Below the pieces are notes generated by a model, which was given only the letters and a program-made list of their open reading frames with translations, was not told the DNA's origin and made no database searches. 64,000 nt of DNA from positions 192-64,191 of the forward strand of contig JANWKZ010000019.1 of assembly GCA_025451115.1 (NCBI GenBank), given 5' to 3'. The stretch is from Bacteroidia bacterium. Lineage in GTDB: Bacteria > Bacteroidota > Bacteroidia > B-17B0 > Aurantibacillaceae. The position numbers and the translations under genes were made by a program. Numbering within the stretch: the stretch's first letter is position 1; each line of letters starts with the position of its first letter. This document shows positions 5,408-56,277 of the stretch, piece by piece.

Positions 5408-6964
5408 ATGAGAAAACTTTTACTTTTTATCGCTGCCCTTTTTTTGGGGTCTTCTTTAGGCGCGCAACAGGCCACTTTTTCAAAGGTTTATTATGATTCG
5501 TTGCAATCCGGAACACAGGTTAATGCCATCGTCCCGGCTAACGGAGGTTCTTTTCTTGTTGCGGGGTTTTATTCAAGTCGCGATGGCTTAGCATTCAAGA
5601 TCGATTCCATCGGAAACCGACTTTGGAGTAAAACCTATCATTATTCTACTTTAACCTTCCCTTCCATACGTTTTAGTGCCGCAGCACCAACCTATGGTTC
5701 CTGTTTTATTCTTGCGGGCACGGCTTACGATTCTGTCAGCGGATTTCTATCTGCTTTATGCATGAAGATAGATGCGAACGGCGATACTATATGGAGCAAG
5801 GTGATAGAAAAAAGCGGTCACTATATCGAGATATTATCTATTAATGAAACGCACGATTCGGGTTATGTCATGACCGGTTATGCCGACCTTTCCGGACCAC
5901 CCTATGCTAAGCTATTTATTGCAAAAATGGATAAGGCCGGGGTTCTTTTGTGGTCTAATTTTTTTACGGCCGGAAATAATGGAGATTATGGTCATTCAGT
6001 GAAAGAAACGCCGGACAGCGGATTTGTGGTTTGTGGCGGTTTAAACTCAATTCCCGGAAGCTTTCTAATTAAATTAAATAAAACAGGATCGGTCTTGTGG
6101 TCCAAAAAATATATTGCCGGCACCAATCCCTGTTATTTCCATGACTTTGTCATCATGAACAACGGTTACTATTTGTACGGGTATGCCGGGCCTGACCTTG
6201 TTTTACTAAAGACCGACTTTAACGGAAACATACAATGGCAAAAGAACTGGTTGGCATACAGTGGCGGATATTTCATTAATGCGAGCCAGCCCAAACTTCA
6301 TAGAAAATCTGCCAATGAATATTATTTTATTTTAGGAACCTGTGGCGGAAGTTATTCTTTTAAGGTCGACTCAACGGGTAATATCATCTGGGCACAAAAT
6401 CTTACGCTAAATGCCATGGATATGCTCGAAACAAAAGACGCGGGATATCTTGTGGCAGGCAATGGCCCCATGTGTGCCATTAAGCTTACCAATCTAACCA
6501 TCCCGCATATTGGCCTTATTAAAACTGATTCTTTGGGCAACGAATCATCCTGCGTTTTCAGTTCCTCGATCCCGCCTGACATGGACCTTATAACTGCGAG
6601 CGTCGTCAGTTTTACCAATACTCCAGGCGCCATCTCAAAATCCATCAGGGCCGTGCCGGATACCCTTCTTATGGGTTCATTCGCGGGTTGTGTTGGGTGG
6701 ACCGGCAGCATTGAGGATGCAGATATAGCCGATGAATTCCTTATTTATCCTACTCCGGCAGAAAAAGAGTTTAGGATAGAATGTAAAAACAGTACTGAAA
6801 GAACTTTGTTTTTATTTGATGTTACAGGAACTTTACTCAAAAAAGCGGTATTTGGAGGCAATTCCATAACAATCAGCGTTCACGATCTTCCTTCCGGTTT
6901 GTATTTTGCCAGGATCATAACCCATGCTGGTTCTGTGGTAAAAAAAGTCGTGATTCAACATTAG
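5408..6964 (+). CDS. Secreted beta-propeller-like protein with a T9SS type A C-terminal domain
   Basis: Signal peptide, repeated K.D..G...W.K blades, IYP.P...LPSGLYF....KK CTD. Confidence 0.8.
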   Translation: MRKLLLFIAALFLGSSLGAQQATFSKVYYDSLQSGTQVNAIVPANGGSFLVAGFYSSRDGLAFKIDSIGNRLWSKTYHYSTLTFPSIRFSAAAPTYGSCFILAGTAYDSVSGFLSALCMKIDANGDTIWSKVIEKSGHYIEILSINETHDSGYVMTGYADLSGPPYAKLFIAKMDKAGVLLWSNFFTAGNNGDYGHSVKETPDSGFVVCGGLNSIPGSFLIKLNKTGSVLWSKKYIAGTNPCYFHDFVIMNNGYYLYGYAGPDLVLLKTDFNGNIQWQKNWLAYSGGYFINASQPKLHRKSANEYYFILGTCGGSYSFKVDSTGNIIWAQNLTLNAMDMLETKDAGYLVAGNGPMCAIKLTNLTIPHIGLIKTDSLGNESSCVFSSSIPPDMDLITASVVSFTNTPGAISKSIRAVPDTLLMGSFAGCVGWTGSIEDADIADEFLIYPTPAEKEFRIECKNSTERTLFLFDVTGTLLKKAVFGGNSITISVHDLPSGLYFARIITHAGSVVKKVVIQH

Positions 6965-52210: not shown

Positions 52211-52214
52211 TTTC

Positions 52215-52243
52215 TTTGTAATTCGCGATTCGCGAATTGCAAA
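52215..52243. repeat. 29-bp palindrome after hrpB
   Basis: TTTGTAATTCGCGA-T-TCGCGAATTGCAAA. Confidence 0.6.
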
Positions 52244-52297
52244 ACCAGCCAATAAAATAATTAAAGAATTTAAAATCAACAAAATAACTAGTAATAA

Positions 52298-52333
52298 TAA
52301 ACAATATTGTTTAAACAAAAATGATTATATTTG
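52298..52333 (+). promoter_or_regulatory. Palindromic operator plus -7 box of the HTH/AbiEii pair
   Basis: Perfect TAAACAATATTGTTTA (52298-52313), overlapping TTGTTTAAACAA, then TATATTTG at 52326-52333. Confidence 0.65.
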
Positions 52334-52336
52334 CAT

Positions 52337-52792
52337 ATGAATAGATCAATTTCAATAGCCAAAGGAATACACCCCGGCTTGTTCCTGGAAAGAGAATTAA
52401 AAAAAAGAAAACTAGCCAAGGGAAGGTTCGCTTTATTGATCCACGAATACCCGCAAACACTTACCGCCATTACCAAGGGTAAGCGCAATATGAATCCTGG
52501 ACTTGCGCTTAAGATAGAAAAGGAGCTCGGCTTTGACGAAGGAGACTTCATGGTGCTACAGGCTTATTATGAAGTTGAGCTGGAGAAAAGAAAGCGGCCC
52601 GTTATAAAACCCGACCTTAGCAAAATACGACGCATTTTATTTTGGGACACAACATTCGAGAAGATCGACTGGCAAAAACACAAAAACAGCGTTATCAAAA
52701 GAGTATTTGAGAGAGGCAATGAAGAGGAGAAGGAAGAAATAACAAGGTTTTACGGAGCCCGAACAGTAAAGGCGGCATTGAAACATGACTAA
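52337..52792 (+). CDS. HigA/VapI-like HTH antitoxin fused to a DUF6922-like domain
   Basis: IHPG..L, GKR......ALKI; C-terminal LFWD....IDW......VI.RVFERG. Confidence 0.8.
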   Translation: MNRSISIAKGIHPGLFLERELKKRKLAKGRFALLIHEYPQTLTAITKGKRNMNPGLALKIEKELGFDEGDFMVLQAYYEVELEKRKRPVIKPDLSKIRRILFWDTTFEKIDWQKHKNSVIKRVFERGNEEEKEEITRFYGARTVKAALKHD

Positions 52793-53432
52793 AGAGCTCC
52801 ATTATAATACAGTTAACCCATATCTTTTAAACGTGCTCATGCAATTAATGAGCGCGAAAGAATTTGCGTCATTTAGATTAGTGGGCGGCACCTCCTTAAG
52901 TTTACAGCGCGGGCACAGAATATCAATTGACATTGATCTTTTCACAGATGCAGAATATGGCTCGATTGATTTTGATGAACTTGATAGATCGCTCCGCCAG
53001 AATTACAAATACGTAGATACTGCCCAAACCGGCGAACCGGGCATGGGAAGATCATACTTTGTTGGTAGAAATAAAGAGGACTGTGTAAAGCTGGATATTT
53101 TTTATACCGATCCATTTATCTTCCCTGCGCTTGAGATGAACGGAATTCGCTTAGCAACCATTGAAGAAATAATAGCCATGAAACTCGAGGTGATCATTCG
53201 CGGAGGGAGAAAAAAAGATTTCTGGGACCTGCACGAATTAACCGGCGATCTCACGCTTAAACAAATGCTGGAATTGCACGAAAAACGCCATCCTTATTCG
53301 CACGATGCAGGACTCATAAAAAAGCAGTTCAGCAATTTCTCAAAAGCCGACAATGATGGCGCCCCTGATTGTTTAAGAGGCCACACTTGGGAATTAATTA
53401 AGCTCGACATGCAGGACTTCTCTAAAACATAG
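52785..53432 (+). CDS. AbiEii/AbiGii-family nucleotidyltransferase toxin
   Basis: LVGGTSL....GHR.S.DIDLF, AMK......G.KKDF.D; overlaps the HTH gene. Confidence 0.88.
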   Translation: MTKELHYNTVNPYLLNVLMQLMSAKEFASFRLVGGTSLSLQRGHRISIDIDLFTDAEYGSIDFDELDRSLRQNYKYVDTAQTGEPGMGRSYFVGRNKEDCVKLDIFYTDPFIFPALEMNGIRLATIEEIIAMKLEVIIRGGRKKDFWDLHELTGDLTLKQMLELHEKRHPYSHDAGLIKKQFSNFSKADNDGAPDCLRGHTWELIKLDMQDFSKT

Positions 53433-53476
53433 ACTTTCGTCGACAAAGAGATAAAATAATTTTTCTATCTTCCCCT

Positions 53477-54892
53477 ATGTTTTCCCGTCTTTTGCTAAGC
53501 GTATTTTTACTGGGCAGCGTTCTTGCAAGAGCACAGAGCGACTCATTGCGCGCACTTCTTAAAACAGCGAAGGAGGATACAAACAAAGTTTTACTCCTAA
53601 ACAGTTATGCAGATACATTCTGGCAGAGTGGTCGGCCGGATAGTGCGGAGATCATAGCCAATCAAGCGATCTCCTTAGCAGATAAACTCAATTTTAAAAG
53701 AGGATTGGCCAAAGCCTACAACAGTTTGGGCGTGGCCCGCAACCAGCAGGGAAATTTTACCGGCGCGCTTGAGAGCCATCTTATGAGCTTGAAGCTGAAC
53801 CGCGATCTCCAGTACAAACCCGGAACCGCTTCGGCCTATGCGAACGTGGCGGGAACTTATATCAACCTGGGAAATTATCCCGAGGCGCTCAAAAATAGTT
53901 ATGCAGCCTTAAAAACCTACGAGTTAATTCCGTTCAAGCCCGGCATGGCCACTTCGTATATCAATATTGGCGCGGTGTATTTTAACCAAGGCAATTTTCC
54001 CGATGCACTTATTAATTACGAGTTGGCACTGCAGATCAGTAAGGAAAGTAATTACCCCCGAGGCATGGCCAACTCCTATATACAGATTGGTAACATTTAT
54101 TATAACGGGCACAAATATGAAGAAGCGTTAAAGAACCACGCCGAAGCGCTGCGCATACAAAAAGAGACCGGTGATGTGGATGGCGAAGGAACTTCTTACA
54201 GTAATATAGGCTCGGTTTACCAAGACCAAAAACTATACGATAAGGCGCTGGAGAATTTTTTCCGCTCGCTTAAATTAAAGGAGCTGATAGGCGACCGGTT
54301 GGGAATGGATATTGCCATGGGAAATATCTCGAGCGCTTACGACAAAAAAGGCGATCTGGAAAAAGCCGAAGAGTATGGACAAAAAGCTTTAAAAATTGCC
54401 AATGAAATAAACGACCTGGAAGGAGTAAAGGAGCTGAACATGAACCTGAGCACTATCTACGAAGAAAAAGGACTCATGCAAAAAGCGCTTACGCATTACA
54501 AAGCCTACATAGCCGCCCGCGACAGCCTGGTGAACGAAGAGAATACCAAAAAGACCGTGCAACTGGAAATGAACTATGAATTTGACAAAAAAGAAGCCGC
54601 CACTAAACTGGAACAGGAAAAAAAGGACGCCGTAGCGGCGGCCGAGGTCCGGCGCCAAAGGATCATTTTATTGGCGATCTCTTGTTTTGGATTGCTGGTA
54701 CTTGGTTTTGCCGTATTTGCCTACCGCAGCTTCTTACAAAAACGCAAAGCCAACGAAGAAATTACCCGCCAAAAGGATATGATAGAGATGAAGCAGGAAG
54801 AAATTCTCAGCAGCATACGCTACGCGAAACGGATACAAACAGCGCTGTTGCCTTCGGAGAGGGTGGTGGGAAAAATGCTTAAAAGAAATTAA
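53477..54892 (+). CDS. Periplasmic TPR sensor-like membrane protein lacking a catalytic output domain
   Basis: Signal peptide, about 7 TPRs, TM helix, coiled coil ending SIRYAKRIQTALLP then a stop. Confidence 0.8.
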   Translation: MFSRLLLSVFLLGSVLARAQSDSLRALLKTAKEDTNKVLLLNSYADTFWQSGRPDSAEIIANQAISLADKLNFKRGLAKAYNSLGVARNQQGNFTGALESHLMSLKLNRDLQYKPGTASAYANVAGTYINLGNYPEALKNSYAALKTYELIPFKPGMATSYINIGAVYFNQGNFPDALINYELALQISKESNYPRGMANSYIQIGNIYYNGHKYEEALKNHAEALRIQKETGDVDGEGTSYSNIGSVYQDQKLYDKALENFFRSLKLKELIGDRLGMDIAMGNISSAYDKKGDLEKAEEYGQKALKIANEINDLEGVKELNMNLSTIYEEKGLMQKALTHYKAYIAARDSLVNEENTKKTVQLEMNYEFDKKEAATKLEQEKKDAVAAAEVRRQRIILLAISCFGLLVLGFAVFAYRSFLQKRKANEEITRQKDMIEMKQEEILSSIRYAKRIQTALLPSERVVGKMLKRN

Positions 54893-55590
54893 ATTATGTT
54901 GTCACGCTTTTGCAAATTGTGTCGAGCGCAAAGCAACTGAATATTCTCAACTTTTAGAGAAGTACCGCCTTTCGAAAATGGAAGAATATGGTCGAAATGT
55001 AAATTATCGGAGCTTCCACAAGTAACACATTTACCGTTGTCGCGTCTCCAAACTTCTAATTTGACTGACGTAGGAATCATTCGGTTATGCGCTAAATCCT
55101 TTAGTGTAACCACATTTTGCGATATGGACTCAATAGTTTTATCAGTAATATCAAATTGAAATTTAAAAACTTTTCTTCGCCCACTTTTTTCTTGCCAGGC
55201 ATCCTTCAATTCAAAAACGCCATTGTAAACCCAAATGCCATCTTTAATTTTTTCATAAACTTTTACTAATTCCGCGGCTAGCTCTTTTTTCTTGTATTTA
55301 ACTGCGGCGTTGAAAAACTTTCCATTTTCAGTTAATTTTCCCGAGGGTGATTTCAACGGCTGATCAACATTTTTTGGAATTTTGGCCCAATTTTTTTGTG
55401 CATCATGCCCTTCGTAAATTAAAGTTTTTCCTTCGTTTTCAGTCTTATCAGAATATGGAGCCCCTTTTCTTTGAGACATTAAAATTACTGTGGTCCTACC
55501 CTTGCATTGGAAATTCATCCCTTTCTGTAAGGAAAAACCTTCCTCCATGCACATCGCACTATGAGAGATTATATCTCCTGGCTGAATCAT
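54889..55590 (-). CDS. SRA-like domain plus HNH endonuclease (putative modification-dependent type IV restriction enzyme)
   Basis: Y.D....LIYEGHD...DQ...NG...W.YNG.F.L...W......VFKF (SRA pattern); C..C....HFDHI.P.SKGG.....N.QLLC..HN (HNH). Confidence 0.75.
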   Translation of the reverse strand: MIQPGDIISHSAMCMEEGFSLQKGMNFQCKGRTTVILMSQRKGAPYSDKTENEGKTLIYEGHDAQKNWAKIPKNVDQPLKSPSGKLTENGKFFNAAVKYKKKELAAELVKVYEKIKDGIWVYNGVFELKDAWQEKSGRRKVFKFQFDITDKTIESISQNVVTLKDLAHNRMIPTSVKLEVWRRDNGKCVTCGSSDNLHFDHILPFSKGGTSLKVENIQLLCARHNLQKRDNII

Positions 55591-55808
55591 TTCTTAAATT
55601 CTTTTGAATTAAAAAATTCAGCAATTGATACTTCCAAGGCTTTAATTATTCTTTCTAAAATTTCAACGGAAACATTCCTTCTTCCGTTTTCAACATCCGT
55701 AATATATGTGCGATCGACTTCAGCTTTATACCCTAATGCTTCTTGCGAAATTCCAAGCTCTTTACGAAGCTCTTTAATCCTCTTTCCTACTTTGTTCTTG
55801 ATATTCAC
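55587..55808 (-). CDS. C (controller) protein of the R-M type, Xre HTH
   Basis: G.RIK.LR...G.SQE.L..KA.VDRTYI..VE.G.RN.S; GTG start; ATGA overlap with the nuclease gene. Confidence 0.85.
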   Translation of the reverse strand: MNIKNKVGKRIKELRKELGISQEALGYKAEVDRTYITDVENGRRNVSVEILERIIKALEVSIAEFFNSKEFKK

Positions 55809-55826
55809 GGGATTAAAAGTATAGGT

Positions 55827-55861
55827 ATGTGGCCTATAAGTCAACGGACTTTAAGGGTCAT
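55827..55861 (-). promoter_or_regulatory. 35-bp C-box (Esp1396I-like double operator)
   Basis: ATGTGGCCTATAAGTCAACGGACTTTAAGGGTCAT, 18 nt upstream of the C start. Confidence 0.75.
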
Positions 55862-55883
55862 TTCATTATATTTGCCTACCAAC

Positions 55884-56189
55884 ATGAACATAAAATTCAA
55901 TTATCTCTACAGAGACGCTGCTAACTACAAAACATTTGGTTTTGTAGTTTTCTCAAATCCAGATGGCATCGATCTGAATCAATTGGAAAAATTGATTCAG
56001 AATAAGTTGCTCGATGGTGAATTTTTTGAACCGAAGAGATTCGGCATTCCTCACCTAAGACATTTGGATTTTCCATTTGATCTTGAATTGGATCACGATT
56101 GGAACGAGTTTCATTCAGTAGAAAAAACCACAGAAATGCCCACTGATAAAAGGACAATAAAGGAGTTTCTTCTCCAAATAGGGATTTAG
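55884..56189 (+). CDS. 101-aa hypothetical protein (YLYRD..NYK and DHDW.EF motifs)
   Basis: TATATTTG at 55867-55874 upstream; divergent from the C gene. Confidence 0.75.
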   Translation: MNIKFNYLYRDAANYKTFGFVVFSNPDGIDLNQLEKLIQNKLLDGEFFEPKRFGIPHLRHLDFPFDLELDHDWNEFHSVEKTTEMPTDKRTIKEFLLQIGI

Positions 56190-56277
56190 ACCCCAATTTC
56201 CCTCAAAACCACCCTCTTAACAATAGTTAAAATCAATAAAATACGGGGTATTTTTAGTATTTTCGCCCTCCGAAACC

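Follow-up and report, generated by a model that had tools for sequence, protein, structure and literature searches.

A C-protein-like circuit without a methyltransferase, and a candidate portable accessory protein, beside a predicted modification-dependent nuclease in a Bacteroidia genome

The usual explanation of C proteins is that they are timers, delaying restriction until methylation has taken place. What would such a protein do in front of a nuclease that has no methyltransferase beside it, and what is the small protein encoded divergently from the pair? Both questions are raised by a three-gene islet (positions 54889 to 56189) in the 64,000-nucleotide stretch of a Bacteroidia bacterium genome that we analysed (the window; assembly GCA_025451115.1, contig JANWKZ010000019.1, positions 192 to 64,191 of the forward strand). 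The islet encodes a C-like protein, a nuclease with an SRA and an HNH domain (SRA-HNH), and a 101-amino-acid (aa) protein that we call p101. For the islet as a whole, we give roughly an even chance to the explanation that it is a defence unit in which the C protein controls the SRA-HNH nuclease and p101 is a portable modulator.

The C circuit and the nuclease behind it

On the minus strand, a gene for a 73-aa Xre-type protein (C; 55587-55808, GTG start at 55808-55806, stop at 55589-55587) runs into the gene for a 233-aa nuclease (54889-55590, stop codon included), and the stop of the first and the start of the second share an ATGA (55587-55590) that points to translational coupling. The p101 gene (55884-56189, 101 aa plus stop, ATG at 55884) lies divergently on the plus strand and encodes a small acidic protein. 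Between them is a 35-bp, two-site C-box operator (55827-55861), whose C-gene-distal site adjoins p101. A preliminary description of this DNA had given the same gene layout, and its coordinates proved exact, as did its spacings: 18 nt separate the operator from the GTG, with the -10-like hexamer TATACT in between (55818-55823, minus strand, 9 nt before the GTG), and 5 nt separate the operator from a Bacteroidota-type -7 box, TATATTTG (55867-55874, plus strand), which ends 9 nt before the ATG of p101.

The Xre protein matched HTH_3 in Pfam (6e-16) and Control_protein in PADLOC (3e-19); PADLOC capH was also matched (3e-13). Its best solved matches were C.Esp1396I (3clc, 5e-13, 63 aligned residues), C.BclI and C.AhdI. 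The GTG start is supported by homologues, which carry ATG at that position, and C followed by a downstream nuclease gene is found in the same order in sampled loci L048, L059, L098, L174, L190, L195 and L202. Read on the minus strand, the operator agrees with the native 35-bp C.Esp1396I operator (PMC2504287) at 25 of 35 positions, in line with the approximate figure of the preliminary description. The runner-up 35-mer in the window reaches 20/35, the maximum over 200 shuffles is 24, and 13 of the 16 specified positions of the C-box consensus are present. The operator is nearly invariant in L024, L048, L050, L059, L080 and L098, with a little more divergence in L064; its flanks diverge in all seven loci, and it is kept whichever nuclease follows C. 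A more distant group of C genes from Cyclobacteriaceae has a related box containing GACTATAGTC. Judged from these sequences, the 73-aa protein is a true C-protein relative with a two-site operator and a coupled nuclease gene.

The promoters on the two sides of the operator differ in how well they are conserved. TATACT is a sigma-70 type of -10 box, and promoters in Bacteroidota are expected to be of another type. The hexamer is not conserved in orthologous loci, and the earlier suggestion of a near-leaderless C mRNA starting from it is therefore weak. On the other side, TATATTTG fits TAnnTTTG, and a clear box of this form directed toward p101 lies 4-5 nt from the operator in four close loci, namely L024, L048, L080 and that of the window. 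L050 and L059 have degenerate forms of it, L064 shows no clear one, and L098, which has no divergent gene, lacks it. Across the window TAnnTTTG is rarer than expected (37 sites against ~60 from shuffles), which fits selection against stray Bacteroidota promoter boxes.

The nuclease matched Pfam SAD_SRA (1.7e-7; 31.5 bits against a cut-off of 30.7; model positions 9-143 of 148 covered) and HNH (2e-7), with HNH_5 also matched. Its AlphaFold2 model had a predicted local distance difference test score (pLDDT) of 84, and the top Foldseek match was TagI (6ghs, 1.3e-7), with further matches to the SRA domains of SUVH5 and UHRF1 (range from TagI to SRA 1e-7 to 1e-3), ScoMcrA, AspBHI and MspJI. An alignment of homologues showed C188, C191, H198, D200, H201, N216, C221 and N225 to be invariant. 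The SRA-like N-terminal domain and intact zinc-HNH that had been read from the sequence are thus upheld by domain, fold and residue comparisons. Like TagI, ScoA3IV and TbiR51I, the window enzyme combines an N-terminal SRA fold with a C-terminal HNH carrying zinc-binding cysteines and has no cognate methyltransferase; TagI is its best structural match, though a direct sequence search with the nuclease failed to reach it. We therefore predict a TagI-like, modification-dependent (Type IV) SRA-HNH enzyme. The absence of a methyltransferase gene from the islet was also borne out: domain-library scans found no methyltransferase domain in any gene of the surrounding insert (52211-56199), and the C5-methyltransferase family PF00145 had no match in the assembly, which is 73.6% complete.

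In several respects the islet resembles the C.Esp1396I circuit and its relatives (AhdI, BclI, PvuII, Kpn2I, EcoRV), with a similar Xre-type C protein and operator, a C gene that is coupled to a nuclease gene downstream of it, and a divergent gene whose promoter abuts the operator. It departs from C-regulated Type II systems in lacking a methyltransferase, in having a 101-aa protein as the divergent product, and in its Bacteroidota promoter type. In divergent C systems the protective methyltransferase gene sits where p101 sits here (PMC12707154). The C proteins covered by a 2025 review belong to Type II systems and to a single Type I system (PMC12707154), and our literature search found no C control of modification-dependent (Type IV) enzymes; in the literature searched, neither a C protein nor a p101-like neighbour is mentioned for the characterised SRA-HNH enzymes. 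The window nuclease is predicted to be modification-dependent, and the usual reason for delay, time to methylate the host, is therefore inapplicable; the C protein might instead control dosage or make entry into a new host safe. The earlier proposal that a C circuit has been re-used for a modification-dependent nuclease is supported by the C protein, its operator and the coupled TagI-like gene without a methyltransferase.

From their overlap, the C and SRA-HNH genes are taken to be co-transcribed and translationally coupled. By analogy with studied C systems, the circuit would work as follows. At a low C level the distal site would be bound and the C-nuclease operon would be on; at a high C level the proximal site would be filled and the operon would be off, with the result that a nuclease of predicted 5-methylcytosine/5-hydroxymethylcytosine specificity may be held at a set level. 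Transcription of p101 would start from the -7 box, which lies 5 nt away from the distal C site. Bound C would overlie the -33 region of p101, and so p101 is probably produced early and repressed later.

The nuclease family itself is ordinary, and C control is a minority arrangement within it. At least 7,954 matches make the SRA-HNH family very large, and among 13 homologues in 400 sampled Bacteroidota genomes, one lies with C (L098, which has no p101) and one with p101 (L100). The C circuit also fronts other methyltransferase-free architectures, four in all: SRA-HNH, a PD-(D/E)xK-DUF2075 helicase, an AAA_5 pair and a GmrSD_N/DzbA-like protein. One conserved regulatory module in front of interchangeable defence effectors is also seen with the WYL proteins BrxR/CapW and with CapH-CapP; in those systems the regulator fold, operator and logic differ from those here, and the islet has neither a protease nor a WYL sensor.

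The p101 family and its neighbours

No match to p101 was found in Pfam, NCBIfam, PADLOC, PHROGs, PDB sequences or the ESM Atlas. A profile search nevertheless collected 2,149 cluster representatives (728 with E ≤ 1e-10), and the AlphaFold2 model of p101 is confident (pLDDT 93.9). Foldseek against PDB and BFVD gave nothing better than E 0.16, and the best Z in an exhaustive VIA search was 3.2; of the two islet proteins for which fold searches had been suggested, the nuclease thus matched TagI and SRA domains and p101 found no match. The family is acidic (median isoelectric point 4.7, net charge -8). Its N-terminal hairpin motif, NYLYRDxxNYK, is invariant, D70, H71 and E75 are nearly so, and the invariant polar residues Y7, Y9, R10, D11, N14, K16 and N25 are the same whatever the partner. 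The gene occurs once per genome, in ~5% of sampled Bacteroidota.

To describe its surroundings, we collected 160 p101 loci from two independent collections (80 genome loci and the remainder from metagenomes) and clustered and then named the neighbouring open reading frames (ORFs); p101 was called in 157 loci. A defence nuclease lies within 1 kb of p101 in 137/157 loci (72/80 genome, 65/77 metagenome), and the metagenome loci without a partner are mostly truncated contigs. In the 80 genome loci the neighbours are an HNH_2 nuclease with a VcaM4I-type HNH (35), a PD-(D/E)xK-DUF2075 helicase (PADLOC PDC-S41; 17), a SauUSI-like Type IV enzyme (8), a NOV_C protein (PDC-S36; 7), an AAA_5 (McrB-type) ATPase with a partner (4), SRA-HNH (2, one also counted under HNH_2), a C-like gene with a GmrSD_N/DzbA-like protein (1) and an EcoRII-like enzyme (1). 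A literature search returned nothing on PDC-S41 or PDC-S36. The adjacency spans many taxa with unrelated outer flanks. Across all 160 loci, SRA-HNH is present in 6, C in ~27, and a C-like gene with a GmrSD_N/DzbA-like gene in 2. An earlier expectation that the 101-aa family would be tied to C plus SRA-HNH did not hold, given these counts and the at least six nuclease architectures involved; p101 is linked to nucleases in general and not specifically to SRA-HNH or C.

Two layouts were distinguished. In the first, the nuclease gene precedes p101 on one strand, often with a small gene for a four-cysteine zinc-ribbon protein upstream, and the stop codon of HNH_2 overlaps the p101 start in 15/23 loci. 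In the second, which is that of the window, the nuclease and C share one strand and p101 is divergent. Several proteins (P0117, P0047, P0050, L046) have the zinc ribbon fused to p101, at one end or the other, and the zinc-ribbon protein weakly matches Ogr/Delta, TFIIB and Elf1 ribbons, all below cut-offs. Other small partners occur besides the zinc ribbon. A conserved ORF of ~85 aa lies between the C operator and p101 in L024 (5748-6011) and also in L165, L166, L174, L190 and L202, with the motif RSSKRI.Y.P.T.TFD.HNEIDDS and no Pfam match. In Cyclobacteriaceae, p101 (L016, L022, L040, L057, L063 and others; ~5743-6000) has a conserved 85-aa N-terminal extension, a module that is a separate ORF in L192, L193 and L203 and has weak structural look-alikes.

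A four-gene string also recurs, composed of a Vsr-like endonuclease, a zinc-ribbon protein, the HNH_2 nuclease and p101, the last two in variable order (L183, L199, L213, L228, L234, L178, L181, L226). Beside the HNH_2-p101 pair, a C5-methyltransferase is present in L235, L077 and L184, the last two of which also contain EcoRII-like genes. Derivation from a degraded Type II system was considered and rejected, since a C5-methyltransferase, the class screened for, lies near p101 in just 4/160 loci.

A phage anti-restriction origin of p101 was likewise rejected, because relatives in viral collections are rare (14 of 2.9 million contigs and 1 of 50,697 phage records) and distant. Distant p101-like domains are found in long same-strand arrays of small genes on IMG/VR contigs (L086-L092), where they form the C-terminal part of 251-263-aa proteins, and on the Bdellovibrio plasmid pBdHM1 (L096).

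Possible roles of p101

The p101 tree tracks host taxonomy and not partner type. Partner type changes 31 times on it; shuffled labels give 34.5 changes, and the minimum is 5. Sisters with good support are paired with unrelated nucleases, and one clade serves AAA_5, helicase, SauUSI-like and HNH_2 types. A pair of loci from sister species, L057 and L063, records a nuclease swap: their flanks are 90% and 84.5% identical and the segment from C through the operator to p101 is 81% identical, the AAA_5 pair of one replaces the helicase of the other, and the breakpoint falls ~30 nt inside the 3' end of C. Together with the optional presence of p101 and its viral rarity, these observations argue against a lock-and-key antitoxin and make it more likely that p101 acts through something that all its partners share.

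We tentatively propose that p101 modulates nuclease action generically, setting its safety or its threshold by way of DNA or a host factor, with no lock-and-key binding. It would be a portable accessory, independent of the nuclease that it accompanies, and would serve, often with the small zinc-ribbon protein, in operons of at least six unrelated and mostly methyltransferase-free nuclease types. This proposal fits the acidity of p101, its coupling with the nuclease gene and its methyltransferase-like position. By analogy, SUKH/SuFu, colicin Im, ArdA, Ocr and Arn may be compared with p101 as small acidic proteins whose genes adjoin nuclease genes, and a few of these families serve several nuclease folds. 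In the libraries searched p101 gave no sequence or fold match to them, and it has an invariant polar patch and no co-variation with its partner.

Several observations weigh against this proposal and against the picture of the islet as a whole. The zinc-ribbon fusions suit a regulator at least as well. The invariant polar residues look more like a site for a specific ligand than like a loose mimic of DNA, and the libraries searched returned no fold or sequence relative of p101. Neither C nor p101 lies within 1.5 kb in 11/13 sampled SRA-HNH loci, and p101 is likewise missing from 22/30 HNH_2 loci, many with near-identical scores. The C promoter stretch between operator and start codon is not conserved, and C binding, promoter use and nuclease specificity are all deduced from homologues.

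The alternative that survives best, which we judge doubtful though ranked only slightly below the generic modulator (both being proposals), is that p101 is a regulatory cofactor or sensor. It would tune expression of the nuclease operon, leaving the nuclease itself alone, in concert with the host transcription machinery and a small DNA-binding partner, which is C in the window and elsewhere the zinc-ribbon protein or the N-terminal extension. This reading is in keeping with the fusion of zinc ribbons to either end of p101, the 85-aa N-terminal module that is fused or adjacent, and the weak resemblance of the ribbons to those of Ogr/Delta, TFIIB and Elf1. It also fits the host-tracking tree, as expected of a factor that contacts host machinery, the retention of the C-p101 pair through nuclease swaps, the optional presence of p101, a property shared with C proteins, and a polar patch that is the same with every partner. 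Against it, p101 is acidic and without a recognisable DNA-binding fold, it lies mostly downstream of and overlapping the nuclease gene, which is unusual for a regulator, no zinc-ribbon gene adjoins p101 in the window, and the zinc-ribbon family assignments are all below cut-offs.

That p101 is a classical antidote, an antitoxin or immunity protein whose specific binding would block the SRA-HNH nuclease, appears improbable. Such a role would suit a small acidic protein whose gene adjoins the nuclease gene, often overlapping it as in nuclease-immunity pairs; in the islet the gene also stands in the methyltransferase position, and its expression probably precedes that of the nuclease. An antidote should co-vary with its toxin family, and the partner labels are scattered on the p101 tree, with sisters that have unrelated nucleases and a single clade that serves four types. 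Nor should a toxin occur without its antidote: HNH_2 and SRA-HNH nucleases occur without p101, L098 among them, and therefore need no antidote. The preliminary description had offered the divergent protein as an antidote or partner; the partnership stands to the extent that p101 is not a chance neighbour, as the kept promoter-operator spacing indicates, the specific antidote is disfavoured by the lack of co-evolution and by nearly identical HNH_2 nucleases that do without p101, and p101 may instead have a generic protective or regulatory role.

That p101 is functionally unlinked to the nucleases, either as the conserved bookend of a recombination hotspot or as an independent hitch-hiking defence or counter-defence gene, is improbable as well, for although nuclease cassettes are exchanged beside it, the hotspot is full of unrelated toxin-antitoxin and defence cargo, and distant homologues stand alone in arrays of small phage or plasmid genes, p101 has stop-start overlaps with the nuclease gene, its promoter and the operator are conserved together, the adjacency holds in 137 of the 157 loci, in many taxa with unrelated outer flanks, and p101 travels with the islet and is not left behind in the empty site.

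Whichever of the two leading roles applies, p101, with or without its zinc-ribbon partner, may represent a new and structurally unprecedented class of portable accessory for methyltransferase-free restriction-type nucleases, either a safety catch or a transcription cofactor, that would form with C a plug-in platform for exchanged cassettes; we hold this to be a real possibility, at somewhat less than even chance. With a confident fold and no known relatives, this large family is closely tied to Type IV enzymes and to candidate defence nucleases. It offers a testable handle on how self-endangering nucleases are kept safe or regulated, and is worth adding to defence-island annotation models.

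The insertion site

The trio forms the right edge of a 4-kb variable insert (52211-56199) between an hrpB-like helicase gene and uppS, which also holds an AbiEi/AbiEii-like pair and a TPR paralogue. A 17-nt direct repeat, TTAAAATCAA(C/T)AAAATA, at 52270-52286 and 56227-56243 brackets the whole insert. The same gap holds only ~150 bp in one congener (G402), and in the closest congener (G403, UppS 96% identical) it holds two AbiE pairs, a PDC-S41 helicase, Fic and HipAB; at cassette borders G403 also has second copies of ~60-80 bp from the 3' end of hrpB and from the region upstream of uppS (L161, L162). The hrpB-uppS gap is a hotspot for variable cargo.

Upstream of the nuclease gene, a TPR protein with a membrane anchor (53477-54892) belongs to a greatly enlarged paralogue family: this 2.75-Mb assembly has 56 matches, and congeners have tens. 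The idea that this gene had been cut off by the islet was rejected, since most of the 56 genome copies share its end point. The same insert contains another defence or toxin-antitoxin unit at 52331-53432, where the gene for an AbiEi-like antitoxin (HTH plus DUF6922 in Pfam, 153 aa) overlaps that for an AbiEii nucleotidyltransferase toxin (215 aa).

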